Shown here in pieces: positions 101 to 39,900 of a DNA stretch of 64,000 bases. The stretch is taken from contig JACPJU010000001.1 in NCBI GenBank assembly GCA_016187385.1, positions 8,348 to 72,347 of the forward strand, given 5' to 3'. Source of the stretch: Candidatus Aenigmatarchaeota archaeon. Lineage in GTDB: Archaea; Aenigmatarchaeota; Aenigmatarchaeia; CG10238-14; SCSR01. The notes under the pieces are model-generated. The model was not told the DNA's origin. It made no database searches and saw only the letters and a list, made by a program, of their open reading frames with translations. How positions within the stretch are numbered: position 1 is the first letter of the stretch; every line of letters begins with the position of its first letter. A program made the position numbers and the translations under genes.

Positions 101-1393
101 ATGGCCGTTGATTTCAAGCGCATCTGGAGTTACTATTCCCGCGAATCTGTTCAAAAGGCTCTTGTGGAAGCAGGCAAGGACAGGGAAGTGGTTTCTGTTT
201 TTCAGGACGGAAGCTTCGGTAAGCGGCCAGACATCATACAATACCCGACAGACGTAGTTCAGGCTGTTTCTGACGGTACGGTCGCTTTCCACGGCTCTGT
301 GGAGAGATGGAACAATCCGATGAACTTGAGCGTCGGCATGTACAAGCCTGACATGGACAACCTAAGAAAAGGCTGGGACATTATTTTTGATCCTGATGTC
401 AAGGACTTTGAAATCGCTAAACTGGTCGCGAAACAGATAATACAAATACTAGAAAAGCACAATGTCAAAAATTACTCTGTTAAATTCACGGGTGGCAAAG
501 GGTTTCACATAGGCGTTTGTTTCGAATCCCTGCCGGAAAGGATAAATCTTCAGCCGGTAAATACATTATACCCTTCGCTGTTCCAGAATGTGGTAGAGTA
601 TGTCAAGTGGTATTCTAGAGATGAGTTAAAGGAAAAATTGTTGGCTCTGGATGATCCCGAGAACTTGGCCAAAAGAGTCGGCAAATCGCTTAACGAGATA
701 ATAACAGAGAATGAACTTGACCCGTTCAAGATAATCTCGATGGATGTGTTCGGCTCGCGGCATCTTTTTAGGCTTCCTTATTCTCTACACGAGTCGACTT
801 TGCTTGTCAGCATGCCTGTAAAAGTTGAGAAGATAGAAAAATTCAAAAAGGAAGATGCGTCGACTGAAAAGGTCAAGATTGATGAAAAGTTTCTTGTGCC
901 TTTGGTAAAGAATGACGGCGAAAGTTTGATAGTCGAGGCGTCGGACTGGGCAAGCAAGTATAAGATTGAAGTCAAGACTGAATTCCAGCAAAGGAAATTT
1001 GTAAAAATCAGTGAAGTTCCTGAAACGTTTTTCCCGCCATGCATCAGGCAGTTATTGCAAGTTGGACTGGCTGACGGCAAGAAAAGAGCTTTGTTCATTC
1101 TTATCACATTCATGAGAAACATGGGATGGTCTGACGAAAAGATACAGGACAAGGTAGTCGAATGGAACGAAAAGAATATACCACCGTTGAGGTCTAACTA
1201 TCTACGTTCGCAATTGAGATGGCATTTCAGGCAGGACAGAAATCTGCTGCCGCCGAACTGCGTTAATGATGTGTTCTACAAGCAACTCGGACTCTATGAC
1301 ATGTGCTGCAAGGAGATAGATCATGCGAACATCAAGAACCCTGTTAATGTGCCATTAAGGAGATTGAAAGAAAGGAAACAAGTGGTTAAATAA
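101..1393 (+). CDS. priSL: DNA primase, fused small (PriS) and large-subunit C-terminal (PriL-CTD-like) domains
   Basis: N-terminal half has the archaeo-eukaryotic primase catalytic motif (KFTGGKGFHIGVCF, i.e. SGxxGxH-like, plus acidic DxD-like residues). C-terminal part has FPPCIRQLL, which resembles the conserved PPC(M/I) motif of the PriL/PRIM2 C-terminal domain, plus extra Cys residues (NCVND...DMCCKE). 430 aa, which matches the compact fused primases reported in nano-sized archaea. Confidence 0.7.
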   Translation: MAVDFKRIWSYYSRESVQKALVEAGKDREVVSVFQDGSFGKRPDIIQYPTDVVQAVSDGTVAFHGSVERWNNPMNLSVGMYKPDMDNLRKGWDIIFDPDVKDFEIAKLVAKQIIQILEKHNVKNYSVKFTGGKGFHIGVCFESLPERINLQPVNTLYPSLFQNVVEYVKWYSRDELKEKLLALDDPENLAKRVGKSLNEIITENELDPFKIISMDVFGSRHLFRLPYSLHESTLLVSMPVKVEKIEKFKKEDASTEKVKIDEKFLVPLVKNDGESLIVEASDWASKYKIEVKTEFQQRKFVKISEVPETFFPPCIRQLLQVGLADGKKRALFILITFMRNMGWSDEKIQDKVVEWNEKNIPPLRSNYLRSQLRWHFRQDRNLLPPNCVNDVFYKQLGLYDMCCKEIDHANIKNPVNVPLRRLKERKQVVK

Positions 1394-1425
1394 CGTTTGG
1401 GTTTTGGGCTTAGGATTTTTGTTCG

Positions 1426-1441
1426 TGTCCCATATGGGATA
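1426..1441. promoter_or_regulatory. Near-perfect 16-bp palindrome TGTCCCATATGGGATA (one mismatch to TGTCCCATATGGGACA at 4585-4600)
   Basis: Read directly. Core TCCCATATGGGA (1428-1439) is a perfect palindrome. Confidence 0.5.
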
Positions 1442-1443
1442 TT

Positions 1444-1457
1444 GTAGTACGTACTAC
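1444..1457. promoter_or_regulatory. Perfect 14-bp palindrome GTAGTACGTACTAC
   Basis: Read directly. Related AGTACGTACT core recurs at about 3307-3318. Confidence 0.45.
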
Positions 1458-1507
1458 ATGTGTGGATTGCGGTATAAGACGCCTCATATCTCTGCGATCT
1501 TGTCTTA

Positions 1508-1523
1508 TGTCACACGTGTGACA
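1508..1523. promoter_or_regulatory. Perfect 16-bp palindrome TGTCACACGTGTGACA (identical copy at 4632-4647)
   Basis: Read directly. CACGTG core flanked by TGTC/GACA arms. Sits in the intergenic space between the primase and the next ORF. Confidence 0.5.
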
Positions 1524-1618
1524 TTATCAAATCGACAAGAATATCCTATATGCATCAATTACTTTAATGCAAACCCGACCTGTAAATCTTTATAAATTTA
1601 TTTTATTGATTGTAATCC

Positions 1619-2155
1619 ATGGAAGGGGAGATACTTGACTTTATTGCACAAAATAGATTGATAGTTGCTAGTCTGGGCTTGCTAGCTTTGGGGGGTGCAT
1701 TATATTTACGAAAAATGAATCGTTCTCAAAGAATCACCGTATCCAATAATCTGTCACAAGCTTCGACTGTAGAAAAAGTTGATGAAGTAAGAGTTGATGA
1801 TGAGGAAGAATTGCAAGTAAGAGACATTTCCCAGTTATTAGCACAAAAACTGGATGACAATAGTTATGAGCTGGTTGCTAAAGTCGACAAGGTTTACAAC
1901 AGTCCAAGAGGTTATATAGGCCTATTGTCAGATCATGAGGCAAAAATACCTTTCATTTATGAAAAACATGAAGGTGATGACGATAGTTATTATGCTATCG
2001 CCGGACTTTTATTGCACGAATCATTGGATAGCCGGTCTGATTTAGAATTAAACGGCACTGTCAAATCTCCTTATACTGATGATACATCGCGAACTTTCCG
2101 TATAGAATATATGAAAGGGAAAATCGCTGGCATGGATTACGAAGTCTCACTCTAA
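1619..2155 (+). CDS. Hypothetical protein with N-terminal transmembrane helix
   Basis: 178-aa ORF. Hydrophobic segment LIVASLGLLALGGALYL near the N-terminus. Acidic C-terminal region. No recognisable family. Confidence 0.4.
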   Translation: MEGEILDFIAQNRLIVASLGLLALGGALYLRKMNRSQRITVSNNLSQASTVEKVDEVRVDDEEELQVRDISQLLAQKLDDNSYELVAKVDKVYNSPRGYIGLLSDHEAKIPFIYEKHEGDDDSYYAIAGLLLHESLDSRSDLELNGTVKSPYTDDTSRTFRIEYMKGKIAGMDYEVSL

Positions 2156-2219
2156 TTGATGCTTACCGAGGCTGATAAAATCTATTTAACTTTTCTAATT
2201 TTCTATATAAAATGAAAAC

Positions 2220-2741
2220 ATGCCAGAAGAAACAATCACTTTCGAGCTTATCCGAAAGGTGCATCTGGAAGAACAGAAATCGCCTACATTGACCAGAATA
2301 CCGACGAATTTCTTCCATGCGACCTCGAATTACATCAACCAGAAGAAACAGTTGGACATCGACGACAGGAAGGCATCCCTTGAATTAAGAAGCGTCGAAA
2401 GACTGATAGAAGACATATTCAACAGGAGGGAAAGGAAGATTCTGAACGCCGCCATAATTTCTGCTAGAACAGGATTGCCTCCGGAAAATCTTTCGGAAGA
2501 GGAAAGACCGTTCTACAATTCAATTGTAGCCATGGTAAAGAACAGGAGACATGAACTTCTGTCTGTTATGATGCCTGACAAGAGAAAAGAATCCATGGCA
2601 ATCTTCAAGGAGGACACTCCGGAATTTGTCGGAAGCGACGAGCAGACTTATGGACCTTTCAAGATAGGGGATACGTCCAAGCTTCCTGAGGACGACATGA
2701 GAATCCTTCTCGAAAGGGGCGTGGTAGAAGAGCTTAAATAA
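2220..2741 (+). CDS. Putative GINS subunit (Gins51/Gins15-like). Assignment rests on gene context more than on sequence.
   Basis: 173-aa helical, charged protein located between the primase and rpl44e. In many archaea gins15 lies next to priS. No strongly diagnostic motif seen. Confidence 0.3.
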   Translation: MPEETITFELIRKVHLEEQKSPTLTRIPTNFFHATSNYINQKKQLDIDDRKASLELRSVERLIEDIFNRRERKILNAAIISARTGLPPENLSEEERPFYNSIVAMVKNRRHELLSVMMPDKRKESMAIFKEDTPEFVGSDEQTYGPFKIGDTSKLPEDDMRILLERGVVEELK

Positions 2742-2772
2742 CTTTTAAAATAAATCTTTACAATTGATTTAA

Positions 2773-3054
2773 ATGAAATTCCCCCAGACTCTTAGGACAT
2801 ACTGCATATACTGCAAAAAACATACAATGCATACAGTAGAAATATCCAAGAAAAGGACCAGAGGGTCAATGACACAAGGTCAAAGGAGATATCAACGTAA
2901 ATTAAAGGGGTATGGAAGCTTTCCACGCCCGAAACCAGATCATGAAAAGGTCACGAAAAAAGTTGACTTGAGATACAAATGCAGCGAATGCGGCAAGAAG
3001 CATATGAGAGGTCAAGGATGGAGAGCGAAGAAATTCGAGTTGGTGAAAGGGTGA
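2773..3054 (+). CDS. rpl44e: Ribosomal protein eL42 (L44e)
   Basis: 93 aa. Motifs TYCxxCKKHTxH ... [10 protein letters not shown] ... GWRAKKFEL are typical of L44e zinc-ribbon proteins. TTTTAAAATA box about 30 nt upstream. Confidence 0.9.
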
Positions 3055-3065
3055 AAGAATTGATC

Positions 3066-3236
3066 ATGCCAAGAAGCAAGTTTGTCAAGGTTACATGCAG
3101 GAAATGCAGAAACGAGCAGGTAATATTCAACAAGGTTTCTACTGTTGTGAAATGCTTGAAATGTCAGAATGAGCTGGCGACTCCTACTGGCGGGGACGCT
3201 GAAATTAAGGGAAAAGTTACGAAATCTTTGATGTAA
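3066..3236 (+). CDS. rps27e: Ribosomal protein eS27 (S27e)
   Basis: Internal Met of ORF 2979..3236. Sequence FVKVTCRKCRNEQVIFNKVSTVVKCLKCQNELATPTGG is the C4 zinc-finger S27e signature. The usual rpl44e-rps27e gene pair. Confidence 0.85.
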   Translation: MPRSKFVKVTCRKCRNEQVIFNKVSTVVKCLKCQNELATPTGGDAEIKGKVTKSLM

Positions 3237-3250
3237 AATTTATATACTAG

Positions 3251-3275
3251 CTGCAAAAAAAAGTTTTTGCTGTTT
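3251..3275 (+). terminator. Hairpin GCAAAAA-AAAG-TTTTTGC followed by a T-rich run, downstream of rps27e
   Basis: 7-bp stem with 4-nt loop read directly, followed by TGTTTAT. Archaeal terminators are oligo-T based. Confidence 0.3.
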
Positions 3276-3401
3276 ATCCAAAATATATTATCATCTATGC
3301 GACAAATGTAGTACGTACTCAAAGTCGCGAATTAAGTATGAACAAATAGGAAGGTAAGCGTACGAAGAAGGACTTAAATACCTTACTATCAAGTAATAAA
3401 T

Positions 3402-3833
3402 ATGAAATTTCCAAAAACTTCTGGTTTCAAAAGAAGACAAGAATTAGTCAGACAAATTATCGAAGCTTATAAACAAAAAGCAATAAAATTGGCTTATCAG
3501 CTTGGTGATTTAAGAGACATCAGGAGTGATTATAGAGAATCAGTAGCAAATTATAGACCAACTGAAATTTTAAGTAATCCGCCATTGCAAGACGTGTTTG
3601 GGCATTATGATCAAAAAACTCAACAGCGTATAGGCACCGGACTTATACAAGCTATCTTATTCGCCCCAGACGAGGCTATGGCAGAAGCTGAATGGTACGA
3701 AAAACTTGTTGATTCTCCTCGATTATATTTTGTAACTGGATCTGATTTACAAGAAGTTCTTGAAAGATTACCCCTTACAAAAAAACCAAAATCTTTTACA
3801 TATTTGAGAAACCAGCGTCCGCCGACCGTATAA
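3402..3833 (+). CDS. Hypothetical protein
   Basis: 143-aa ORF with no recognised motif. Confidence 0.4.
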   Translation: MKFPKTSGFKRRQELVRQIIEAYKQKAIKLAYQLGDLRDIRSDYRESVANYRPTEILSNPPLQDVFGHYDQKTQQRIGTGLIQAILFAPDEAMAEAEWYEKLVDSPRLYFVTGSDLQEVLERLPLTKKPKSFTYLRNQRPPTV

Positions 3834-3910
3834 ATTAACATCTAAATCGAAACAAATTCTACCATGTCTAAAACCTTATCTTTTTAAAACGCGAAATATT
3901 AGTAGATATA

Positions 3911-4465
3911 ATGTTCTGGAGCAAGAAGAAGTGCAGGAACTGCGATAATGAAGTCAAATCCGACTGGATGTACTGCTCTAACTGCGGGATAGACTTGACA
4001 GAAAAGAAGCATATCCATAGCGAGATTGACAAGGATTTCCGAAGGATCGACAAATTGTTCGACGGCAGGGAGCCAAAGTTCATTTTAAAGCCATCGCTAA
4101 AGTCCAAAGGCATCAGCATAACAATAACTTCTGATAATATGACTCCGCCAAAGATTGAGGTTATGTCATCTGGCGAGTTTAAAAGAAAGTCACAGATTGA
4201 GGAGCCAAAGCCTGTAAGAATACCAAAGGTTACAGAAGAGCCTCACACGAAGATTGAGAGAAAGCATGACAAGCAGATCATTACTGTTGATATGCCTGAT
4301 GTGAAGAGCCTTGATGATATAGAACTCAAACAGCTTCACCAGAGCATTGAGATAAAGGCATTCGCAGGGGACAAGGCATACTTTAAGCTGATTCCTATAC
4401 CAATGAACGCAACCGTCAACAATGAATTCAAGGACGGCGTGCTAAAGATTGAAGTTGTGAAATGA
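3911..4465 (+). CDS. Zinc-ribbon protein with C-terminal Hsp20/alpha-crystallin-like region
   Basis: N-terminus CRNCDNEV...YCSNCG (two CxxC pairs, zinc ribbon). C-terminus ends ...EFKDGVLKIEVVK, which resembles the terminal beta-strand motif of small heat-shock proteins. Confidence 0.35.
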   Translation: MFWSKKKCRNCDNEVKSDWMYCSNCGIDLTEKKHIHSEIDKDFRRIDKLFDGREPKFILKPSLKSKGISITITSDNMTPPKIEVMSSGEFKRKSQIEEPKPVRIPKVTEEPHTKIERKHDKQIITVDMPDVKSLDDIELKQLHQSIEIKAFAGDKAYFKLIPIPMNATVNNEFKDGVLKIEVVK

Positions 4466-4509
4466 TTATCTCATCTGACTGATATGTCTTTTTGGTTATC
4501 GAAAAGGTT

Positions 4510-4525
4510 TGTCGCATATGCGACA
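4510..4525. promoter_or_regulatory. Perfect 16-bp palindrome TGTCGCATATGCGACA
   Basis: Read directly. Confidence 0.5.
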
Positions 4526-4538
4526 TGTACAACCTCCC

Positions 4539-4556
4539 ATGTAAAACGTTTTACAT
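4539..4556. promoter_or_regulatory. Perfect 18-bp palindrome ATGTAAAACGTTTTACAT
   Basis: Read directly. Confidence 0.45.
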
Positions 4557-4584
4557 ATTTGGAAAATTGTCTGACGCCATGCAT

Positions 4585-4600
4585 TGTCCCATATGGGACA
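4585..4600. promoter_or_regulatory. Perfect 16-bp palindrome TGTCCCATATGGGACA
   Basis: Read directly. Confidence 0.5.
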
Positions 4601-4631
4601 TTATTCTTCGCGATACAATCACAACATTAAT

Positions 4632-4647
4632 TGTCACACGTGTGACA
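4632..4647. promoter_or_regulatory. Perfect 16-bp palindrome TGTCACACGTGTGACA (second copy)
   Basis: Read directly. Identical to 1508-1523. Confidence 0.5.
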
Positions 4648-4661
4648 CACAAAGAACGCCA

Positions 4662-5357
4662 TCAAAAAATCAACTTTATAAAAACCGCGAAAATTAAAAT
4701 TGTCCCCAAATCTGCTATTGATGTCATAACCGGCAAAACAAGGTTGTTGGGATCCTCCTTCCGTGAATAGACATAGTATACAGCAAAAGCCGCGATTACA
4801 ATGATCAGGCTGACCATCGACAACGTTGTGAACAATGAAATCTGCAGCACTTTTAAAACGGAAGCCAAAGTCAATGAGAATCCATTCAGATAAGCTATCA
4901 AGGAAGAAATCGCGCTTATGTAAAATGCGGAAAAAATAGCCACAAGTGCTATTGTTCTTATCAGTTTTCTGATGTCTTCATCCATCCACCAATCGCGCTT
5001 CGTGCCTTTCGTGAAAACCAGTGTAGACAGTCTAGAAACCATAATCATGCTGTAATCCCCAATCATGTCATTCAATGCGGGCAACAGAATAATCAACGGT
5101 AGAAAAGCTATGAACGATGATTGAATTTTCTGCAGGCTTATCCCGCTTATGGTGCTGAAAAGAAACGCCAGTATCAATGCCAAGAGACTCTCTCTAAGTA
5201 TGACAGACACTATGTTTGACTTGGGTCCGTATTCTTTCATGTAGAAAATGGTTCTGTGCGAAATTTTGTGTTTGCGGTGAATCTTATGAATGAGAGGGTT
5301 ATGCTCATGTCTTTTCAATCTTGCCAATTGTTTTCTGAGTTTTGATGATAATTTCAT
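4662..5357 (-). CDS. MgtE-like divalent-cation transporter membrane-domain protein
   Basis: Multi-TM protein with DPNNLVLPVMTSIADLG, matching the D-P-(D/N)-N-x(3)-P-x(2)-T-x(3)-D-x-x-G signature of the MgtE/SLC41 integral-membrane domain. Start overlaps the stop of the upstream paralog (ATGA). Confidence 0.55.
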   Translation of the reverse strand: MKLSSKLRKQLARLKRHEHNPLIHKIHRKHKISHRTIFYMKEYGPKSNIVSVILRESLLALILAFLFSTISGISLQKIQSSFIAFLPLIILLPALNDMIGDYSMIMVSRLSTLVFTKGTKRDWWMDEDIRKLIRTIALVAIFSAFYISAISSLIAYLNGFSLTLASVLKVLQISLFTTLSMVSLIIVIAAFAVYYVYSRKEDPNNLVLPVMTSIADLGTILIFAVFIKLIF

Positions 5358-5896
5358 ATAACCGCCACAGCCGCCAAAAGTGAAAGAATCGTCACAATAT
5401 CACCGGATGTTGTAACATAAGGACCCATTATGTTGTTGGGATCAAAACCTCGCTTGAACAACCAAAATGTCAGAAAAACTGTCATAGGAATTTCTATGAT
5501 GTTTGACAGGACAGCAGCGAATATGGAAATCAATATTATCTTTGGGTAGTCAACGCCAGAAAAAACATAGTTCGCCAAATAGGCAACCGACCCTAGAAGA
5601 AGACTGGTTATTAACGTCAGCAGAATAGCTACTTTGATGTTTTCTACTGTAATCCTGTTTATTGGTTTTCTGGATTTTATCACGCCCAAATGCAACCCTG
5701 CGCTTAACCTCGCCGCCAGACTCCCGCTCACATTGCCCCTCATATCCAAAAGACCCGGAAGCAATATGAAAAATCCTGGTATCAGATAAATCTTGTCAAG
5801 AGCTACCGCAAGAAAATATCCGGCTATCAAGCCGCCTGTGATCGAAATTAATTGGGTGGAGAAAATTTCTTTGAAGTCCTTTGCGAAAATCTGCAT
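5354..5896 (-). CDS. MgtE-like divalent-cation transporter membrane-domain protein (tandem paralog)
   Basis: Contains GFDPNNIMGPYVTTSGDIVT, the same MgtE TM-domain signature. Four or five hydrophobic segments. Confidence 0.55.
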   Translation of the reverse strand: MQIFAKDFKEIFSTQLISITGGLIAGYFLAVALDKIYLIPGFFILLPGLLDMRGNVSGSLAARLSAGLHLGVIKSRKPINRITVENIKVAILLTLITSLLLGSVAYLANYVFSGVDYPKIILISIFAAVLSNIIEIPMTVFLTFWLFKRGFDPNNIMGPYVTTSGDIVTILSLLAAVAVI

Positions 5897-5911: not shown

Positions 5912-6937
5912 TTATCTGTTAAAATCAATTCCGTCTACAGACACCATTGTACCTTCCATACCAAACTTAACGCCTAGAATCTTTTCTGTCACAGCAATAT
6001 TTGTTCTGCAGTGTTCTGTAATTTCTTCGACTTTAATTTCTGATTTTCCTTTTGCCAATGCGATAAATGGAATTATTTGATCAGCCATCCATTTGTCCAA
6101 AGCCGCATTGGATTCCATGGATTTAATCAATTCGAATGAAGCTTCTTCACCAACTTTCTGGGCGGGCTTGCCTATTTCTCCAATATTATCAGAACCTATG
6201 ACAGAATTTCCACAATCAGCCCACAGTGTTATTGAAGTTCCAGGCGAGGCTGTATCGACAACTCTCTTTTCTATCTGTGCATCTGGAAAGCTGTTTTCAA
6301 CTAATGCCTTCTTTGCGCCATTCGCCTGTCGTTTGGCTATGTCTTCCGGCAGCGACCCGACAACCGAGATTCCTTTTATGTGATTGATTTTTCCTCTTTC
6401 TGTCAGCTTGACCGGATTCAATTTTTTCACAGGTTTGAAAATTATTTTTACTTCTCCTTGACCTTTCGAATAAAATCCTTCCCTTATAACTTCCATGCGA
6501 GGCAATGGTAAACCCAATCTGTTCAATATCGGGAATGTTACATGTTCGAGATAATGAATGTTCGGAGCACCCAATCCAGCAGTGCCACCTGTGATGTCTA
6601 AAGTTATTTCATTGTCTGCAAAAATCAGCAATGGTGATAGCGTCTGAAGCAACAGCCCGATAGAACCGGCTGTTCCTATATCTATCTTTCTGCTTCTGAT
6701 GTTGTGTGATTTTGGTATGAATTCTATTTCTGTAGAATGCAACTCCAGTCCTCTGACTTGAGCATTTGTAAACTCTCCCGCTATCTTCACTCCTGTAAGA
6801 TGCTGCGCCTGCAATCCTGGTTTGGGTCTGTTCTTTCTTATGTTGATTATTTTTATTGGTTTGAGTGTTAATGCAGACAATGCGATAGAAGTTCTCAATA
6901 CTTGACCGTAACCTATGGAGCCGTCGATTGTTATCAT
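5912..6937 (-). CDS. rtcA: RNA 3'-terminal phosphate cyclase
   Basis: 341 aa. N-terminus MITIDGSIGYGQVLRTSIALSALTLKPIKIINIRKNRPKPGL closely matches the RtcA consensus (IDGS.GEGGGQ.LR...AL... I.NIRA.R..PGL). Conserved HLTG. Confidence 0.85.
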   Translation of the reverse strand: MITIDGSIGYGQVLRTSIALSALTLKPIKIINIRKNRPKPGLQAQHLTGVKIAGEFTNAQVRGLELHSTEIEFIPKSHNIRSRKIDIGTAGSIGLLLQTLSPLLIFADNEITLDITGGTAGLGAPNIHYLEHVTFPILNRLGLPLPRMEVIREGFYSKGQGEVKIIFKPVKKLNPVKLTERGKINHIKGISVVGSLPEDIAKRQANGAKKALVENSFPDAQIEKRVVDTASPGTSITLWADCGNSVIGSDNIGEIGKPAQKVGEEASFELIKSMESNAALDKWMADQIIPFIALAKGKSEIKVEEITEHCRTNIAVTEKILGVKFGMEGTMVSVDGIDFNR

Positions 6938-7840: not shown

Positions 7841-8479
7841 TCAGCCTATAACCCGTGATAACAAGGCAATGTTCAAGATTCCCAGGAAGCTGAACAGGAA
7901 TGAGAAGAACAGAACTTTCTTCGCATCATAGCGAGCAATAGCCCACAACACGGACACGAAAACTTCTGTGGGCAACGGCAGTGAAACAAGTATGCCGGAA
8001 ATGGCGGGTATCGCCGCTTGCAGGAACTTTGATCTGTATACTCTCTGGTTGAGCCTGTGCTCAAATCTTTCAACATCGAATCCCATCTCGCGGGAAAAGA
8101 TGAACTTTACCTCTTCCAAGACATCCTCTTTGATGAATCTATATATGAGAAAATTGCTTATCATGGCGCCTAATCCCGCTATCAATGCTATTAGAACCGG
8201 ATTGAAGCTCTTGGAAATAACGAATATTGCGACTGCTGATGCAGCTGTCAACGCGCCGTAAGAGAATAAAAATCCAAGTAGGAGAGCACTCAAATATCCA
8301 AATTGAGCTAGGAATTCTGTTACCGCATATATCAGACCTGAATGCGCGAGGAAATATGCAAATACCAGTCCCAAAACAAGAATAATGATATTTTGATGCA
8401 TGAAATGGAACTTTATCAGGCTGCCCATGAAAGTATTGACTTTTCTAACCCGCTGGCTATCCTTGTAGGAATATTTCAT
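7841..8479 (-). CDS. Integral membrane protein (DedA/TVP38-like topology; family uncertain)
   Basis: 212 aa, multiple TM helices, Gly/Ala-rich re-entrant-like segments. Confidence 0.35.
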   Translation of the reverse strand: MKYSYKDSQRVRKVNTFMGSLIKFHFMHQNIIILVLGLVFAYFLAHSGLIYAVTEFLAQFGYLSALLLGFLFSYGALTAASAVAIFVISKSFNPVLIALIAGLGAMISNFLIYRFIKEDVLEEVKFIFSREMGFDVERFEHRLNQRVYRSKFLQAAIPAISGILVSLPLPTEVFVSVLWAIARYDAKKVLFFSFLFSFLGILNIALLSRVIG

Positions 8480-11988: not shown

Positions 11989-12225
11989 ATGCCCAAAGCC
12001 ATGATAAACATATCAGATAGAGCAAATAGGGTGCTGAATATTATAAAAGCGAGGTATGGTTTGAAAGACAAGTCTCAAGCTATAAACAGAATGACTGAAG
12101 AATTTGGGCAGATACTTCTGGAACCACAGTTAAGACCCGATTATGTTAAAAGGTTAAGGAAAATCGAAAGTGAAGGTACAATTTCTGAAGAGGAGTTTGA
12201 GAAGAAATTTAAAGTGAAGCTATAA
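11989..12225 (+). CDS. Putative antitoxin partner of the RelE-like toxin
   Basis: 78-aa charged protein. Its stop overlaps the start of the toxin gene (ATGA at 12222-12225), the usual type II TA arrangement. Confidence 0.5.
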   Translation: MPKAMINISDRANRVLNIIKARYGLKDKSQAINRMTEEFGQILLEPQLRPDYVKRLRKIESEGTISEEEFEKKFKVKL

Positions 12226-12491
12226 TGTTTTCTGCTGAATTCTCCAAAGAGCTGACAAGAAAACTAGAGAAACTTCAGAAAAGAAACAAAGTCTTGTTCG
12301 ATGTTATAATAGATAAGATAAGGGGGATTAAAGAAAATCCAGAACACTACAAACCATTACGACACGACATGAAAGGTCTCAGACGGGTTCATATCATGAA
12401 ATCTTTTGTGCTTATATTCAGAATAGATTATGCTAGTAATAAAATAATTTTTGAAGATTTTGATCATCATGATGAGATATATAGAAGATAA
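12225..12491 (+). CDS. RelE/ParE-family toxin
   Basis: 88 aa. ...HYKPLRHDMKGLRRVHIMKSFVLIFRIDYASNKIIFEDFDHHDEIY matches the RelE/YoeB consensus (KPL...L.G..R.HI...FVL.YRI....I.FL.F.HHD.IY). Confidence 0.7.
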   Translation: MFSAEFSKELTRKLEKLQKRNKVLFDVIIDKIRGIKENPEHYKPLRHDMKGLRRVHIMKSFVLIFRIDYASNKIIFEDFDHHDEIYRR

Positions 12492-12598: not shown

Positions 12599-12889
12599 AT
12601 GGGTGATGGATCGCCAATTCGTAGCGATCTTTCTAGCCTGAAGAAAGTCATACTCAAATCCCTTACTAGAAATCAGATTTTGCTTCTGAATGAAATAGAG
12701 AGTAATTCTACAAAAACTATTACAGCTCTAGTCAGCACAATATCAAAGAAATCCAAGATACCTATATCCACTCTGAAATTAAATGCACGTCTCTTGAAGG
12801 ACTTGGAACTCATTAACTACTCAGTTTCTGAACCTGTTGAATTAAGCGATTCTGGTAGGCTTGTTTTAACTTTGTTGGAGAGTGGATGA
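12599..12889 (+). CDS. Winged helix-turn-helix DNA-binding protein
   Basis: 96 aa. Predicted recognition-helix segment SKKSKIPISTLKLNARLLKDLELI fits an ArsR/MarR-like wHTH. Overlaps the start of the next gene. Confidence 0.45.
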   Translation: MGDGSPIRSDLSSLKKVILKSLTRNQILLLNEIESNSTKTITALVSTISKKSKIPISTLKLNARLLKDLELINYSVSEPVELSDSGRLVLTLLESG

Positions 12890-23854: not shown

Positions 23855-26800
23855 TTATCCTGTTAGTGGCTTGAACACTTTAACAAAACCAGCTGTTATT
23901 GGATTAGTTGCATTTGTGGCATTCTGGACTACTTCAGATGGTATCGTTATCGCTTGCTCTTGCTGCAGATACTTGGAAAGTATAGAATTTATGAAATCTA
24001 TTATGAAAAGTAGCATTTGCTTGAGTCCGCCCACTTCTTCTTTTGTTTCCTTCACTTCCTTCTTAAGCTCGTCCAACTTTTGAATCATAAGCTCTAGGGC
24101 AGCGGGCGAAATGCCTGAACCTTGGCACGGAACTTTTGTTGCACACTTGTCGACACACGCCTTCAAATCAATCTCTGTCGCAGTGCCTTTGCTGATAGCT
24201 TCCTCGGCTTTCTCAAGAGTTGATGTACATGTGTTGATGCAATCATCATCTGTTACAAAATTAAAGCATTCCCCGACTGGCGTAGCCGCAACAGGCGTAC
24301 ATACTTTTTGAATGCAGTTCTCGCCGCATGAAACTTCCTTGCACGCTGACTCGAAAGGCGTGGACGGTACATAACCTTGGTATTCATATCCTTCCTTGTA
24401 TTGCAGGACAACACCTTGGACTACTTCGGCCTTTTCATAAGAAGTGCTGCTGGCTTCCAAATGAATTATGTATTTTCCTTCCGTACATTCGTATTTGCTT
24501 ATGAATTGATTGCCTGTGTATCTTTTCAAGCGATAGTCGTAGTATAAGGTGAATTGCTTGACGCACCCTTTGAGTTCTTCTGTCGGGCTTAGGGTGCCGT
24601 CGATTGCAGCGAATTCCACAGATTTACCATTTTCATCCTTCACTTCAGCGTACATAACAAGATTGGCAGCGTCTACTTGGCTGTCCATACGGAATCCTGT
24701 TTCAATAAAGAGCTTGGCCAGTGCTAAATCAAATTCTTTCAATATCTCCGCATCGGCATAACCTGGAGCATTCACTGTCAATTTCAAAGCATACTCGCCT
24801 GTTGAACATTCTGATGGTATGTACGGGCTGTCCAAGAAATATCTTTGAATGAATTCACCTTTGTATAAGACAGGTTTCACCGGCGACAGATAGATTCTGC
24901 ATACAGAAGGCTTGTAGAATCCTTCCTTGGTAGCTGGTTCTGCAAATAACGGAAACACTTCTCCGGAAACCCAGGCGTCTTTCGCAACAGTTCCATTTGG
25001 ATACGTGACTAGAATCTTCATGTACATCCTATCGTTTGGCTTGTAGCTGGTTTTGTCCAGCGAAACTTCGACATTCAGTTTCTGCTTGGTGATTTCTATA
25101 GCTTTTGTAAGCACGATCTCTTCGGGATGTTTAGAGATTTTAATTTCCATGGTGTAATTGCCGACAGCGAACCAATCCTCGACTGTCCAAGATTCTATTT
25201 CATAAAAGCCGTCTTTGAATGTTGTTGACAGGTATCGAGTGGCAAATCCCTGCGGGTCTTTTACTTGTATGCCGACTGAAGCATCTTTAACTGTTTCACC
25301 GTCTTTATCGTAAACTTTTATTCTTCCTTTCAAGACATCCTTCGGGCTTAGGACATTCTTTTCGAGCACAACATCGGCATTCAAACCCCTCTTGCCTACA
25401 GTAATGGTTGTGCTGGCGTTTGCTTTCTGCTCTTTCCATGTCGTGCTGACTGTGAACTGATATTTCTTTCCCACGCTGTCATAGTCGAGATAATATTTGT
25501 AAATGTACACATCACCGAGTATGGAGGGATATATGACCTGTAAAAGCTTGCCGGTGTCTCCGTCGCGAAGCTCGCCTGTAAGATACAAATCTTTGATGGC
25601 ATTTCCCAAGGCATCTTTCGCTGTTACAGTCAATGCTACAGAATCTCCCGAGAAGTAATCTTTTTTATCTGCAGTTATCGTGAAGGTTTGTATCGTCGGT
25701 TTGATTACTTTCAATGAAGCGTCTGCGCTTGTGGTTTTGAAATCAGAGTGAGAAACTTCTATGGATAAAGTATAATCGCCTGTTGAGATGCTCTCGCTGA
25801 GATAGTATGAAGCCTTGTAGCAATCGCATAGGGAAGAATAGAAGAAATAGAGATTGTATGTTTTTGGTCCAGTAAGGTTGCCTTTTATGTAAGCGTCTGT
25901 GACAAGCTTGCCTGAAGCGTCTGTTACAGTAATTTTAGGATCTAGGAATTCGTTAGGATAATATGTCGTCTTTGGTAAGTTGATTTTTATTTGTATAGAT
26001 TGCTTGCCGCTTGTGACAGCTACGCTCGTGCCTTTACCGACATTGCCAGCGTCGTCCTTGCATTCAAAATAAATATTGTGAGTGCCTTCCGGCAAGCCAC
26101 TAGCAAATGTGTAAGACGCTGCTCCGCTAGAAACTGTTGCTGTGTAGTTGGCGTCATTCTTTACAAGCTTGCATTCTTTGACGCCTATGTTGTCCGAGAC
26201 TGTTGCTGAAAAGGTTGATTGTTTGTTTGGTGTTACTGAAGTTGGGCTGGCGCTTCCGACAGCAGGAGATGTTGTGTCTGATGGTTGCGTTATTTGCGTT
26301 GCCAAAGTTGTAAAAGTGTTATCACCTGACACGCCTTGATTGTTTGAAACGTCCTTCGACTTTACTCGATAATGGTAAGTTGTTGATGAGGATAAGCCGG
26401 TCAAAGTAAATTTATGCGATGTCTTCAGGGTAGAATTGCTACCAACACTTCCGTAGTTCGTGTCTTTTCCATATTCCAATTCTGACGTAGCGCTTTCGTC
26501 TGTTGTCCACGATATGGCTGCAGATTCGTTTGTTATGCTTGATGCGGAGATGGATGAAATAGATGGTGCTGTCGTGTCTGATGACGGCGATGCTGTAGTT
26601 GCGAATGACGAACTTGCTGTTGCTTGAACACCGGAAGCGTCTCTTGACTTGGCCCGGTAATAATATGTTGTCGATGAAGATAAGCCGGTCAAAGTAACTG
26701 TATGGGATGTTGTCATGCTTTCGTTAGTGACATTGGTGCCGTATGTTGTGTCTTTGCCGTATTCGATTTCTGTAGTCGAACTGTTATCGGTTGTCCAAGT

Positions 26801-36595: not shown

Positions 36596-36717
36596 GCTGG
36601 AGTTGGACAACCTGGTCGTCCACTGGTCTTGAGTCTGACAGCTGGTTATTGTGACAAGTTATCAGAATGATAACCAGCACCCGCAAGGGTATGTGGGTTC
36701 AAATCCCACCTCCAGCG
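36596..36717 (+). tRNA. tRNA-Ser (anticodon UGA) with a 38-nt intron at the canonical 37/38 position
   Basis: Folded by hand. Acceptor GCTGGAG/CTCCAGC (7 bp). U8. D-stem GGAC/GTCC with GG in the loop. Anticodon stem CTGGT/ACCAG. Loop CU-UGA-G. Intron about 36634-36671 carries GCTGGTT, complementary to the 3' anticodon-stem/exon, which fits a bulge-helix-bulge splice structure. Long variable arm CACCCGCAAGGGTAT (type II). T-arm GTGGG-TTCAAAT-CCCAC. Discriminator G. CCA not encoded. Confidence 0.7.
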
Positions 36718-38619: not shown

Positions 38620-39900
38620 ATGGTGAAGGTTTATGGAGAATTTTATGGATGTTCAGCAAACAAAGCCGATTATGAGATAATGATTGGACTATTGAAGGAT
38701 GCTGGGATGGAAATTGTCGACTCTCCTAAGAATTCTGATATCAACTTGATAACGACTTGCGCTGTTAAAACGCCAACAGTTAATAGAATGATTTTCAGGT
38801 CAAATGAATTGACGAAGTTTAACAAACCGTTAATTGTTGCAGGATGCCTGTCGAAAATTGAAAAGGAAAGGCAATTAATAGAAAAGATAAATCCCAAAGC
38901 CAGTTTTGTTGGTCCCGATTCTATAACAAAAATCGTGGATGTCGCACATGCGACATTAAATGGAGAGAAAGTTCTCTCTTTAGAGAGGGTGTACGAAGAA
39001 AAAGTTGGTTTACCACACCTAAAAACAAATCCAATAGTTGATATTGTTGAGATAAATAGCGGCTGTCTTTCTTCTTGCACCTTTTGCGCAACAAAATTGG
39101 CTCGCGGTAATCTATACAGCTACAGACCTCATTCCATAAGGGAACAAATAAAACAATCGATAAAAGAAGGTGTAAAAGAAATCTGGTTGACATCACAAGA
39201 TTCATCGGCTTATGGAAGAGACATAGGAACTAACCTACCGGAATTGCTCGATTCGATAATTAGAATAGACGGAAATTTCTTTGTCCGAGTGGGAATGATG
39301 AATCCATTGCATTTCAAGAAAGTCGAGATAAAAGATTTAATCAATGCTTACAAGAATGAAAAGGTTTTCAAATTCCTGCACTTGTGCGTGCAGTCGGGAA
39401 GCAATAAAGTTTTGAAGATAATGAAGCGCGGTTATACAGTTGAAGAGTTTGTTTATTACGTTGAACGGTTCAGGGAAGAAATACCGGAATTGACATTAAT
39501 GACTGACATCATAACAGGCCATCCTGGTGAGGATGAAGAAGACCATGAACAAACTGTCGAATTGATAAAAGAAATCAAGCCAGATCTGACTGTTTTATCA
39601 AAATTCGGTGCTAGACCGGGGACACAGGCTGCAAAGATGGGACAGACACCCCAGAAAGTGGTTAACGAAAGGAGCAAAGAATTGTCAAAGATTATTAGAC
39701 ACGTGTCTTATGAAAGAAACAAAAGATGGTTAAGGTGGGAAGGTAAAGTTTTGATTGATGAGAAAGTCGAGGGTGCTGTTGTCGGGAGAAATTATGCATA
39801 CAAGCCTATAGTCATAAAAGAAAATCTTGGATTGGGTTCTACAGTCAATGTGAAAATATCTAAAGTTACTCGATATGCGTTGACAGGAAAATTGGTTTAA
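38620..39900 (+). CDS. Radical-SAM methylthiotransferase (MiaB/RimO/MtaB family, archaeal tRNA t6A37 methylthiotransferase-like) with C-terminal TRAM domain
   Basis: N-terminal MTTase domain with three Cys (YGCSAN, TTCAV, GCLS). Radical-SAM CLSSCTFCATK (CxxxCxxC). C-terminal TRAM-like beta region. Confidence 0.85.
   Translation: MVKVYGEFYGCSANKADYEIMIGLLKDAGMEIVDSPKNSDINLITTCAVKTPTVNRMIFRSNELTKFNKPLIVAGCLSKIEKERQLIEKINPKASFVGPDSITKIVDVAHATLNGEKVLSLERVYEEKVGLPHLKTNPIVDIVEINSGCLSSCTFCATKLARGNLYSYRPHSIREQIKQSIKEGVKEIWLTSQDSSAYGRDIGTNLPELLDSIIRIDGNFFVRVGMMNPLHFKKVEIKDLINAYKNEKVFKFLHLCVQSGSNKVLKIMKRGYTVEEFVYYVERFREEIPELTLMTDIITGHPGEDEEDHEQTVELIKEIKPDLTVLSKFGARPGTQAAKMGQTPQKVVNERSKELSKIIRHVSYERNKRWLRWEGKVLIDEKVEGAVVGRNYAYKPIVIKENLGLGSTVNVKISKVTRYALTGKLV

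Follow-up and report, generated by a model that had tools for sequence, protein, structure and literature searches.

The palindromes described here are a genuine, non-random repeat family with shared TGT/ACA arms and variable palindromic cores, and the family is apparently new to description. Some Aenigmarchaeota carry these 16-bp dyads as a lineage-specific set of repeats, which occupy the rare non-coding gaps of an otherwise compact genome; the gaps that hold them were opened by recent gene insertions. From the genome itself we examined a stretch of 64 kb (the window) of a Candidatus Aenigmarchaeota MAG, a tiny DPANN archaeon, together with about 150 kb of DNA from relatives.

Perfect 16-bp dyads on a common frame

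First, all sequences and coordinates in a preliminary description of this DNA were found again (Table 1), and its claim that the palindromes are far denser than chance was borne out: the window contains seven perfect 16-bp palindromes, whereas 200 dinucleotide shuffles averaged 1.54 and never exceeded 6. Six of the seven lie in two intergenic gaps totalling 421 bp, all six with TGT...AYRT...ACA, rather than at uniform density including coding regions, which would have indicated a compositional artefact. The two-site pattern was matched four times (0.00 expected). On the other hand, neither TGT-N10-ACA strings overall (21 vs 16 expected) nor 7/8 palindromes (30 vs 33 expected) were enriched in the window; the signal resides in perfect dyads within the frame and not in composition. 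Half-sites alone showed no enrichment elsewhere.

Second, the sites share the frame T1 G2 T3 / A7 Y8 - R9 T10 / A14 C15 A16 (TGT-NNN-ACGT/ATAT-NNN-ACA), in which positions 4-6 vary yet remain complementary to their partners. T1 G2, A7, T10 and C15 A16 were present in 33-34 of 34 sites. The TGTC-N8-GACA frame first proposed captured the common TGT/ACA arms and is replaced by TGT-N10-ACA with invariant A7/T10. Of the 34 centres, 23 were ACGT, 8 were ATAT and only 3 were asymmetric. Perfect symmetry over all 16 bp was found in 25 of the 34; pairs within the 16-mer held in 30-33 of 33 sites and flanking pairs were at chance, which places the end of the symmetry exactly at 16 bp. G.T-type pairs were rare (4 of about 200 stem pairs), and the information content was about 9.9 bits per half-site and 26 bits per dyad. 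Clusters consisted of two to five different unit sequences with a minimum centre-to-centre spacing of 17 bp, abutting units being 1-2 nt apart.

Other metagenome loci were found by a DNA-pattern scan whose pattern already fixed part of the frame. Independent of that scan is a 194-kb set of Aenigmarchaeota DNA, either fetched via proteins or belonging to the window, in which TG-N4-A-N2-T-N4-CA occurred 96 times. Symmetry among these matches was bimodal: 0-3 of the five free pairs were complementary in 79 and 4-5 in 17, and 14 of the latter were perfect (about 0.1 expected). Hybrid half-site combinations were absent among them.

With regard to individual sites, site E had been given as GTAGTACGTACTAC at 1444-1457; that sequence is present, the true unit being the 16-mer. 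The first copy of site A extends to 18 bp if its A/T flanks are included, and the second lies 14 nt past the stop codon of the MgtE-like gene. Decayed copies start at 1426, 3289, 3307 and 38940; the one at 3289 has TATGCGACAAA in common with 4508-4518. The sites at 3289-3304 and 38940-38955 were absent from the earlier list, and the ORF around the latter is presumably a radical-SAM, MiaB-like gene (named by eye).

Table 1. Palindromic sites, gaps and orphan ORFs of the window
Feature	Position	Strand	Sequence	Remarks
Site B'	1426-1441		TGTCCCATATGGGATA	7/8 pairs; G2/T15 mismatch, would be G.U on + strand
Site E	1443-1458		TGTAGTACGTACTACA	Perfect 16-bp dyad; 1 nt from B'
Site A (two copies)	1508-1523, 4632-4647		TGTCACACGTGTGACA	Perfect dyad
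Decayed C-type site	3289-3304		TATCATCTATGCGACA	12/16 positions match C; right half intact
Site E' (decayed E-type)	3307-3319; 3307-3321		TGTAGTACGTACT; TGTAGTACGTACTCA	First 13 nt identical to E
Site C	4510-4525		TGTCGCATATGCGACA	Perfect dyad
Site D	4539-4556 (16-bp core 4540-4555)		ATGTAAAACGTTTTACAT (core TGTAAAACGTTTTACA)	Perfect dyad
Site B	4585-4600		TGTCCCATATGGGACA	Perfect dyad
C-like site	38940-38955		TGTCGCACATGCGACA	7/8 pairs, centre mismatch; inside coding ORF 38620-39900
IG1	1394..1618			225 bp, primase stop to ORF178; holds B', E, A
ORF178	1619..2155	+		Orphan; N-terminal hydrophobic segment, probably membrane-spanning
IG2	3237..3401			165 bp, after S27e; holds two decayed sites
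ORF143	3402..3833	+		Near-orphan, inserted between S27e and Zn-ribbon gene
IG3	4466..4661			196 bp between convergent Zn-ribbon (+) and MgtE-like (-); holds C, D, B, A

Lineage-specific gaps and turnover of sites

All three gaps are lineage-specific, as are the orphan ORFs adjoining two of them, and in four relatives the junctions are compact and lack any complete palindrome; across relatives, the junctions at which sites occur in one lineage are empty or carry other inserts. IG1, which measures 37-43 bp in relatives, was inserted together with ORF178 between primase and GINS. ORF178 has its own TATA box (TTTATAAA, 1589-1596), and a search among 5.8 billion proteins returned only ORF178 itself. 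IG2 is missing in two relatives (L021 and L007), and a third (L018) retains only the relic TATGCGACA. The ORF143 insertion has the decayed E-type site at 3307 at its left edge; ORF143 matched itself and two weak hits among 1.84 billion representatives, and its structure model (pLDDT 46) was unusable. The location near primase and ribosomal genes, as originally noted, is correct, the association being secondary to the lineage-specific insertions at those junctions in which the sites sit. The suspicion that ORFs 1404..1595 and 4492..4770 are spurious appears justified, since both have TTG starts, run through palindromes and are missing from independent gene calls.

The family also occurs at other junctions of other Aenigmarchaeota, such as L32e/MFS and SUI1/Rpp29. 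The last site of the L32e/MFS spacer is TGTCGTACGTACGACA in three of five lineages; in one it is TGTCGCACGTACGACA, a one-sided change, and in one it is identical to site C of the window, which amounts to two symmetric double changes. The site next to it reads TGTAACACGTGTTACA in three lineages and, by a symmetric double change, matches the core of site D in one, and the spacers between sites (2-19 nt) could not be aligned. Aligned sites in related genomes remain dyads via symmetric double substitutions while the spacers diverge. Gain, replacement and decay of sites are all rapid, and cluster membership turns over fast.

Stem-loop repeats, duplex sites and other readings

Both alternatives named at the outset, hairpin-forming repeats and a dimeric DNA-binding protein, are still standing. 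We tentatively favor the former, at somewhat less than even confidence, and regard the sites as REP/BIME-like, stem-loop-capable dyad repeats in which the invariant base (TGT/ACA) and apex (AYRT) are read and symmetry is created or maintained by templated pairing. The functional unit would be an intrastrand stem-loop, formed while the DNA is single-stranded in replication or transcription, or else at the level of the transcript, and a putative factor would recognize stem base and apex, the three middle pairs needing only to pair. Fold-back or strand-switch templating of a half-site of about 10 bits could create units in one step or perfect existing ones; a templated origin is suggested by the speed of turnover, which would otherwise be out of reach for a site of 26 bits. 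The least supported step is the role: the sites would probably act at transcription-unit boundaries, within the 3' regions of transcripts or as insulators beside inserted genes. Several features count against the stem-loop reading: a hairpin loop has no need for a self-complementary centre, which the two-fold symmetry of a duplex site does need, and the fixed length and near-absence of G.T-type pairs weigh in the same direction. Hairpins are nonetheless feasible, with predicted energies from -2.9 to -9.5 kcal/mol as RNA, site D being the weak extreme, and from -3.0 to -5.6 as DNA, although the tolerance of weak AT-rich stems speaks against stability having been selected.

The main rival, which we consider possible although rather doubtful, is that the clusters are arrays of duplex sites bound by a single protein of two-fold symmetry, for which a MarR/PadR-type wHTH dimer resembling Halobacterium RosR is the most plausible candidate. 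Its recognition helices would contact TGT/ACA at a separation of one and a quarter turns, with shape readout of the centre; the arrays would serve as regulatory, roadblock or architectural sites where units meet, and interior symmetry would be a by-product of quasi-palindrome correction. The frame is exactly the TGT-N10-ACA motif of RosR SELEX and crystal-structure work, and the fixed 16-bp length, sharp boundary, central symmetry, weak stems, lack of strand asymmetry and centre-to-centre distances of at least 17 bp all fit. In addition, L018 has a C-type half-site relic just upstream of the conserved Zn-ribbon gene promoter, the equivalent relative place to that in the window, and sites in another genome (L141) flank and overlap the TATA box and presumed transcription start. 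However, a single dimer with free interior predicts independent half-sites and hence perfection in about 4% of sites, in contrast to the 25 of 34 sites and 14 of 96 frame matches observed; thus, this reading needs a second, separate process for symmetry. Sites are missing from the same junctions in relatives and so do not form a conserved regulon. The suggestion of classical operators also fares poorly, because several clusters, including those of IG3 and L32e/MFS, are flanked by convergent genes and lack a promoter, and the spacing to TATA boxes is inconsistent (1 to 65 nt). The 64-kb window yielded no PadR/MarR gene, neither a wHTH nor a PadR protein of the kind proposed as a local binder turned up near the sites, and the search for a palindrome-binding candidate returned none.

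It is improbable that the palindromes are non-functional by-products of the breakage, repair or recombination accompanying gene insertion, for example of fold-back (snap-back) synthesis or of hairpin formation and off-centre opening with sequence preference, which later decay. Dyads perfect through the centre and of fixed size, location at synteny breakpoints and insertion edges (such as the E-type copy beside ORF143), confinement of clusters to lineage-specific DNA, rapid turnover with decayed copies and abutting units would all be expected of such scars. Nevertheless, the invariant frame demands strong sequence specificity, and we know of no archaeal enzyme with that specificity. All five lineages have retained the last L32e/MFS site although the sequence around it has diverged, a pattern suggestive of constraint. 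Near the sites, the window showed neither a transposase nor a recombinase, and the opposite edge of the insertions was without a palindrome in every case.

A purely RNA-level role, as intrinsic terminators or 3'-end protective hairpins with no specific reader, seems more improbable still. Every cluster starts 9-60 nt past a stop codon, two window sites scored as terminator-like, and U-rich sequence follows the first hairpin on the MFS sense strand in four lineages. However, neither a U-tract nor strand asymmetry was found around the sites (T at 52/130 downstream vs 50/130 upstream positions, no overall bias), and intrinsic terminators were rejected on this basis. The genes' own oligo-T tracts already precede the palindromes, other convergent pairs of the window either overlap or are separated by less than 30 bp without a hairpin, and stems as weak as that of site D, a conserved frame, fixed length and lack of G.U pairs would be unexpected for plain terminators. 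The palindromes belong to no Rfam family.

A role in replication or partition, as ORB-like boxes, a partition site or a dif/att recombination site, is very unlikely: primase and GINS lie nearby and several dyads are packed closely together, some of them at a junction of convergent genes, but no orc1/cdc6 or ParB was detected among the approximately 79 of 89 window ORFs covered by the Pfam scan, GC skew followed gene strand only, the family also occurs at unrelated junctions of other genomes, and the hybrid half-sites expected of recombination sites are absent. The sites also differ from one another, whereas ORB boxes, iterons and parS repeat one sequence; iterons were rejected on this ground. 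Finally, next to no weight can be given to a MITE, a transposon end or remnant, or a chance effect of composition, since TG...CA termini (typical of DDE transposon ends) and AT-rich DNA stand against a lack of homology between gaps beyond the 16-mers, of terminal inverted repeats, target-site duplications and internal sequence, and chance is already excluded by the shuffles, whose palindromes (1.5 on average) were randomly spread, and by the two-site expectation.

Comparison with known systems

As is proposed for the palindromes, integron attC sites are recognized by structure over sequence; they also have as neighbours orphan gene cassettes that entered a conserved backbone. They are imperfect bipartite hairpins of 55-140 nt with R/L boxes and extrahelical bases and require an IntI integrase and attI, none of which is present here. 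Quasi-palindrome correction by intrastrand or strand-switch templating is known from E. coli, phage and yeast, mostly for longer arms. It explains the one-step perfecting of imperfect inverted repeats and symmetric double changes without selection; however, it is a mutational process rather than an element, and leaves the invariant frame and the location of sites unexplained.

LacI/GalR- and CRP-type operators (TGTGA-N6-TCACA; PurR site ACGCAAACGTTTGCGT) are, as here, dyads of 14-16 bp that end in TG...CA and have CG or ACGT as the central step, and between paralogous regulators the frame is preserved and the interior differs symmetrically. On this model, at least 12 paralogous regulators would be required in a genome with a main contig of 786 kb. 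Both families are essentially bacterial, and a single gap does not hold a cluster of operators for different regulators.

RosR, a MarR/PadR-type wHTH protein of Halobacterium salinarum, binds TGT-N10-ACA and tolerates very different interiors, and PadR binds TGT-N8-ACA (PMC7145548). The RosR operator has the same outer frame and length as our sites and a variable interior, and RosR provides an archaeal precedent for one dimer on many such sequences (PMC7145548). In contrast, RosR sites are single and reported in putative promoter regions, whereas the sites here are clustered, differ in sequence, often lie between convergent genes and have strictly self-complementary interiors with invariant A7/T10; the window contained no recognizable RosR/PadR homologue.

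Bacterial REP/BIME (REPIN) elements differ in host, the present one being a DPANN archaeon, and in comprising many copies of one consensus rather than many variants on one frame. Our sites are perfect, of fixed 16-bp length and moderate GC, sometimes with very weak stems, and have a symmetric centre; the lack of a 5' GTAG/CGTC tag, of a GC-rich imperfect stem of 20-40 nt and of a Y1 (RAYT) transposase gene, none being seen among the Pfam-scanned window ORFs (about 79), counts against the REP-like reading. On the other hand, REP/BIME elements are also short extragenic palindromes, clustered just downstream of genes and often between convergent genes, with several sequence families possible per genome, compensatory stem evolution, and gain and loss that differ between close relatives.

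Perfect dyads in the window and their gene setting

A maximal-palindrome scan revealed seven perfect palindromes of at least 16 bp in the 64 kb of the window, compared with a mean of 1.54 perfect 16-bp palindromes in dinucleotide shuffles, and six of the seven lay within 1443-1524 and 4510-4647. Re-scanning reproduced all sequences and coordinates of the preliminary description, with one correction of length: the palindrome that it gave as a 14-mer, GTAGTACGTACTAC (site E), is a real dyad but is really the 16-mer TGTAGTACGTACTACA, which places all five sequence types (A to E) in a single frame, TGT-N10-ACA, in which position 7 is always A and position 8 always a pyrimidine (half-sites TGTMNNAY and RTNNKACA). 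The motif had been proposed as TGTC-N8-GACA; its shared arms and variable palindromic core hold, whereas the exact frame is TGT-N10-ACA with the invariant A7. Taken as a whole, TGT-N10-ACA strings and 7/8 palindromes occurred in the window at chance frequency, and isolated half-sites were not enriched there. The anomaly is specifically that of perfect dyads in the TGT-N10-ACA frame.

The window (64 kb of the 786-kb contig) contained ten sites in total, nine of them within 3.3 kb. All clusters, those at the other loci described below included, were located in intergenic gaps, starting 9-60 nt past a stop codon and comprising two to five units per gap; the spacing between sites was 17-89 bp without phasing. 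A flank composition table showed A-rich positions at -1 and -2 and nothing else conserved. The window genome, a Candidatus Aenigmarchaeota (DPANN) MAG, is compact, with gaps mostly below 60 bp and frequent overlap between convergent genes (window GC 39.5%), and its primase is identical to the NCBI protein with locus tag HYW24_00055. Two TTG-start ORFs that cross the palindrome gaps (1404-1595 and 4492-4770) were absent when genes were called on Logan contigs of identical sequence. They are probably spurious, as had been suspected, and ORFs called across such gaps should be treated as spurious in annotation. The ORF holding the C-like site, named by eye, was radical-SAM and MiaB-like; a rough estimate of the chance probability of this site was ~0.02.

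Coordinates of sites, gaps and genes in the window
Feature	Position	Strand	Remark
Fused PriS-PriL primase	101-1393	+	
IG1 (primase / ORF178 gap)	1394-1618		
Site B'	1426		one-mismatch member
Site E	1443-1458		
Site A	1508-1523		
Orphan ORF178	1619-2155	+	
GINS51	2220-2741	+	
L44e	2773-3054	+	
S27e	about 3018-3236	+	
IG2 (S27e / ORF143 gap)	3237-3401		
Decayed C-type site	3289-3304		2 nt from E-type neighbour
Decayed E-type site	3307-3321		2 nt from C-type neighbour
Orphan ORF143	3402-3833	+	
Zn-ribbon protein	3911-4465	+	
IG3 (Zn-ribbon / MgtE-like gap)	4466-4661		
Site C	4510-4525		
Site D	4540-4555		
Site B	4585-4600		
Site A	4632-4647		
MgtE-like genes (n = 2)	4662-5896	-	
RtcA	5912-6937	-	
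C-like site TGTCGCACATGCGACA	38940-38955		15/16 identical to C; inside coding region

Several other features of the window were observed. The conserved ribosomal operon has a further break in this genome (21178-27771), where a 953-aa ORF (23855-26716) and additional genes stand between L14/L24 and L5. A probable toxin-antitoxin pair (11989-12491) consists of a small DUF2683-like protein and, after it, a toxin of the ParE/RelE type; ParE toxins also adjoin the primase in the relative L019 and the ribosomal operon in the relative L143. A PDB search with the 96-aa helix-rich ORF at 12599-12889 gave no match. In Rfam 15, the sole gathering-level match was a tRNA gene at 36596-36717 on the plus strand, interrupted by a long intron (38.8 bits over 122 nt), whereas ARAGORN found no tRNA anywhere in the window; positions 1350-4750 gave nothing better than E = 1.7, and no known RNA family was assigned to the palindromes at either gathering or permissive thresholds. 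Over the whole window GGCC and GATC were strongly depleted (observed/expected 0.37 and 0.50, respectively), which suggests restriction-modification pressure. A restriction artefact or ACGT avoidance was rejected for the dyads, the observed/expected ratio of ACGT (0.74) being only mildly low.

Symmetry of the sites and the family in other genomes

We conducted a symmetry census in 194 kb of Aenigmarchaeota DNA, which consisted of the window and of loci from protein look-ups and took nothing from the metagenome DNA-pattern scan. Among the 96 matches to TG-N4-A-N2-T-N4-CA, the number with 0, 1, 2, 3, 4 and 5 complementary pairs out of the five free pairs was 14, 38, 24, 3, 3 and 14, respectively. 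The distribution has two distinct peaks, one of background matches and one of perfect dyads (14 observed in 194 kb vs ~0.1 expected), and the same picture was obtained with all loci. In an alignment of 33 sites, T1/A16 was present in 33/33, G2/C15 in 31/33 and T3/A14 in 30/33; pairing within the 16-mer was held in 30-33 of the 33 sites, whereas beyond it, over four positions to either side, pairing was at chance. The center was ACGT in 23 sites and ATAT in 8; three sites had an asymmetric center. The information content was ~9.9 bits for the half-site and ~26 bits for the full dyad, and 25 of 34 sites were perfect compared with ~4% from independent half-sites at the observed position frequencies. 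Strict two-fold symmetry is maintained as the dyad family evolves.

Metagenomes were scanned for pairs of frame matches 10-40 nt apart with a pattern that fixed part of the frame and left positions 5, 6, 11 and 12 free; this yielded at least 120 loci. Among the matches listed, most were tandem arrays of one sequence with a fixed period on ORF-poor contigs, which are a different phenomenon from the dyad family. These arrays (L129, L095, L128, L091, L126, L103 and others) have one TGT-N10-ACA palindrome each, periods of 22-51 bp and GC of 0.40-0.60 (e.g., TGTCACACGTGTGACA repeated eight times at 24-26 bp), and look like satellites or iterons of unrelated organisms. In viral contigs, the two-site pattern matched only phage-like arrays in which a single sequence recurs exactly or nearly so. 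At least six low-GC metagenome loci contained clusters of three to five differing perfect dyads in the same frame, some of them identical to window sites B, C and D, some without T3/A14 (e.g., TGATACACGTGTATCA and TGAGATACGTATCTCA), and one, TTTCACACGTGTGAAA, with T replacing G2. Such clusters were found 3' of L6-L32e, where an inserted, oppositely oriented MFS gene of half size precedes L19e (L087 and L110), in the aSUI1/RNase P Rpp29 gap (L141), in the endonuclease V/S13 gap (L048) and in the gap of two tandem retropepsin-like paralogues (L032). L087 and L141 belong to Aenigmarchaeota by protein identity to other loci of the comparison (PCNA ~89%, Rpp29/S17 ~75%). The L032 paralogues (799-1631) are of the gag-asp protease type, and three different family palindromes occupy their gap. 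The window's own Rpp29 has a palindrome-free gap of 44 bp directly upstream, and the neighboring ORF there is nameless. We found no description of this dyad family in the literature.

Orphan genes and conserved operons at the dyad junctions

DPANN archaea have very small and compact genomes, and close relatives differ in gene order and have orphan genes within otherwise conserved operons. We compared four Aenigmarchaeota (L018, L021, L007 and L019) whose primases are 69-78% identical to that of the window and which share the gene order primase-GINS-L44e-S27e-Zn-ribbon. The primase-GINS gap is only 37-43 bp in L018 and L021, and the promoter of the Zn-ribbon gene lies at most about 60 bp past the S27e stop in L018, L021 and L007. 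No homologue of ORF178 was found among 5.8 billion proteins, and ORF143 had just two weak relatives among 1.84 billion representatives. It follows that IG1 with ORF178 and IG2 with ORF143 are insertions and that the region 3' of the Zn-ribbon gene is variable. The primase-GINS junction is a hotspot at which unrelated orphan genes accumulate, L007 and L019 having different ones there. It spans 1394-2219 in the window (ORF178), 6177-6873 in L007 (ORF159) and 11199-11591 in L019 (a 111-aa minus-strand ORF), and is empty in L018 and L021. ORF178, ORF143 and ORF159 have no mutual homology. ORF143 was rejected as a candidate DNA-binding protein, with no match in Pfam, PHROG or PDB and an unusable AlphaFold model (pLDDT 46).

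The loci of the four relatives (~80 kb) contained no complete palindrome of the family, but only a half-site relic, TATGCGACA, in L018 (12374-12384), directly upstream of the conserved Zn-ribbon promoter (AAACCTTATCTTTTTAAA). Directly upstream of the same promoter, L007 has a relic CGACA (about 7907-7912), and TATCATCTATGCGACA occupies the corresponding position in the window (3289-3304). The occurrence of relics at this place in all three genomes suggests an old C-type site at the Zn-ribbon promoter junction. The primase-ORF gap of L007 (6177-6300) also contains a MITE-like unit with 15-16 bp terminal inverted repeats (AAGCTTTGTTTAAATA / TATTTAAACAAAGCT), bounded by the direct repeat TGAAATTAA; its interior has three copies of TGTTTAAG, and a fourth copy, TGTTTAAA, lies within the left inverted repeat. 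This unit represents a second repeat system at the junction, distinct from the dyads.

The L32e-L19e junctions of further relatives were obtained via L32e homologues. This junction was empty in L148, L150 and L155 (gaps of 4-52 bp, no palindromes), had a different insert in L152, and contained the MFS insert in five lineages, in which palindromes adjoin the MFS 3' end. The MFS insert (L087 8525-9620 and its equivalents in L143, L147, L153 and L156, with extra genes in L153) splits the operon S8-L6-L32e / L19e-L18-S5 in one Aenigmarchaeota clade, and the operon is intact in the close relatives L148, L150 and L155. In L155, an insert that separates L6 from L32e (1347-2597) encodes a 416-aa, possibly transposase-like protein with many faint HTH-family matches.

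Palindromes adjoining the MFS 3' end in five lineages
Lineage	Nearest MFS stop	Neighbor
L143 (L110 identical)	TGTCGTACGTACGACA	TGTAACACGTGTTACA
L087	TGTCGTACGTACGACA	TGTAAAACGTTTTACA (C6A with G11T)
L156	TGTCGTACGTACGACA	TGTCCCACGTGGGACA, 2 nt off
L147	TGTCGCACGTACGACA (one-sided change)	TGTAACACGTGTTACA
L153	TGTCGCATATGCGACA (T6C with A11G; C8T with G9A)	TGTAACACGTGTTACA

A four-way alignment, in which site orthology within the fast-evolving spacer was judged by position and flanks, revealed both-sided changes at three pairs, and 98% of its cells pair vs 18-52% in slid controls. The inter-site spacers (2, 12, 12, 15 and 19 nt) differ in sequence as well as in length, and an extra TGTCCCATATGGGACA in L143 corresponds to a non-palindromic stretch of about equal length in L147. 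Across the five lineages, therefore, the dyad class is conserved, its single members turn over, and substitutions within them are symmetric. A family specific to new non-coding DNA at junctions could provide a sequence marker for gene acquisition and insulation, and the frame TGT-N3-AYRT-N3-ACA offers a handle for tracing its reader or its source, be it a protein or a process.

Candidate readings of the dyads

We tentatively favor the reading that the dyads are stem-loop-capable repeats, REP/BIME-like in behavior. A reader would recognize TGT/ACA at the base of the stem and AYRT at its apex, and the three middle pairs would need only to pair. Such a single model would cover the covariation, the differing sequences in one cluster, the post-stop location including convergent gaps, and the turnover and decay. 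It accounts less well for dyads that are fixed in length, symmetric through the center and almost free of G.T pairs, and whose stems are weak (RNA stem energies of -2.9 to -9.5 kcal/mol). The dyad family shares with REP/BIME its extragenic, clustered placement downstream of genes. REP/BIME units are imperfect GC-rich palindromes of ~20-40 nt, whereas units of the window family are perfect and exactly 16 bp, and the flank table shows no GTAG or CGTC end tag. REP/BIME elements reach 100 or more copies per genome; the 64 kb of the window contain ten sites. No RAYT (Y1 HUH transposase) was found among the ~79 of roughly 89 window ORFs scanned with Pfam. A G.U strand bias as a sign of RNA-level selection was discarded, as informative cases numbered only two.

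Fixed length, sharp edges, central symmetry and weak stems accord with duplex sites for a two-fold symmetric protein, a possibility that we consider somewhat less probable than stem-loops. RosR of Halobacterium, a MarR/PadR wHTH protein, binds TGT-N10-ACA with widely varying interiors (PMC7145548); the dyad frame is exactly the same, and window types A-E are all TGT-N10-ACA. However, protein binding of this kind predicts independent half-sites, so that the perfect interiors would require a second process. In addition, the clusters in the convergent IG3 and L32e/MFS gaps are promoterless, TATA boxes lie anywhere between 1 and 65 nt away with no consistent promoter-region location, and the sites are not conserved across relatives. 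Among the ~79 of roughly 89 window ORFs scanned with Pfam, we found no PadR/MarR match and identified no binding protein; a MarR_2-like gene was seen only in L148, a relative without sites. TATA-like boxes lie 21-26 nt from site A in IG1, IG3 and L087, and a minus-strand promoter with site A at the transcript start is no more than a speculation, the boxes being weak or within coding ends.

Both the stem-loop and the duplex reading would require either selection for pairing or a templating process, intrastrand or by strand switch, since a 26-bit site should not be gained or replaced by point mutation alone between genomes with L32e 85-92% identical. A half-site of ~10 bits completed by templated copying could turn over at that pace. 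It is improbable that the dyads are non-functional repair or recombination scars, and the terminator-only, origin, MITE and chance readings share what probability remains. Intrinsic terminators were rejected, with T at 52/130 downstream vs 50/130 upstream positions and a terminator-like flag at only two of nine window sites; oligo-T tracts already occur ahead of the palindromes, and other convergent genes have no hairpins. The earlier suggestion of a replication origin was not upheld: GC skew follows gene strand with no inflection, no orc1/cdc6 occurs among the ~79 of roughly 89 window ORFs scanned with Pfam, and the sites differ, unlike identical ORB boxes. Nor did a miniature inverted-repeat element survive, as the gaps have no mutual homology beyond the 16-mers and no flanking direct repeats. 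Iterons or tandem operator arrays (differing sequences, irregular spacing), copies of a few masters or a shared palindrome vocabulary (14 identical pairs vs 8.9 expected, p = 0.14) and a larger ncRNA across IG3 (z = -1.4 on the plus and -2.7 on the minus strand, driven by the palindromes themselves) were also rejected.

There is, finally, a small chance that a sequence-specific DNA transaction of the fold-back or hairpin-forming kind, accompanying DPANN gene acquisition, generates each dyad in a single step and that a dedicated factor then reads the dyads. They would be an archaeal counterpart, different in mechanism, of the REP/RAYT or integron attC systems. If this were true, dyads would mark the places where orphan genes enter conserved operons, and perhaps make such insertions possible.
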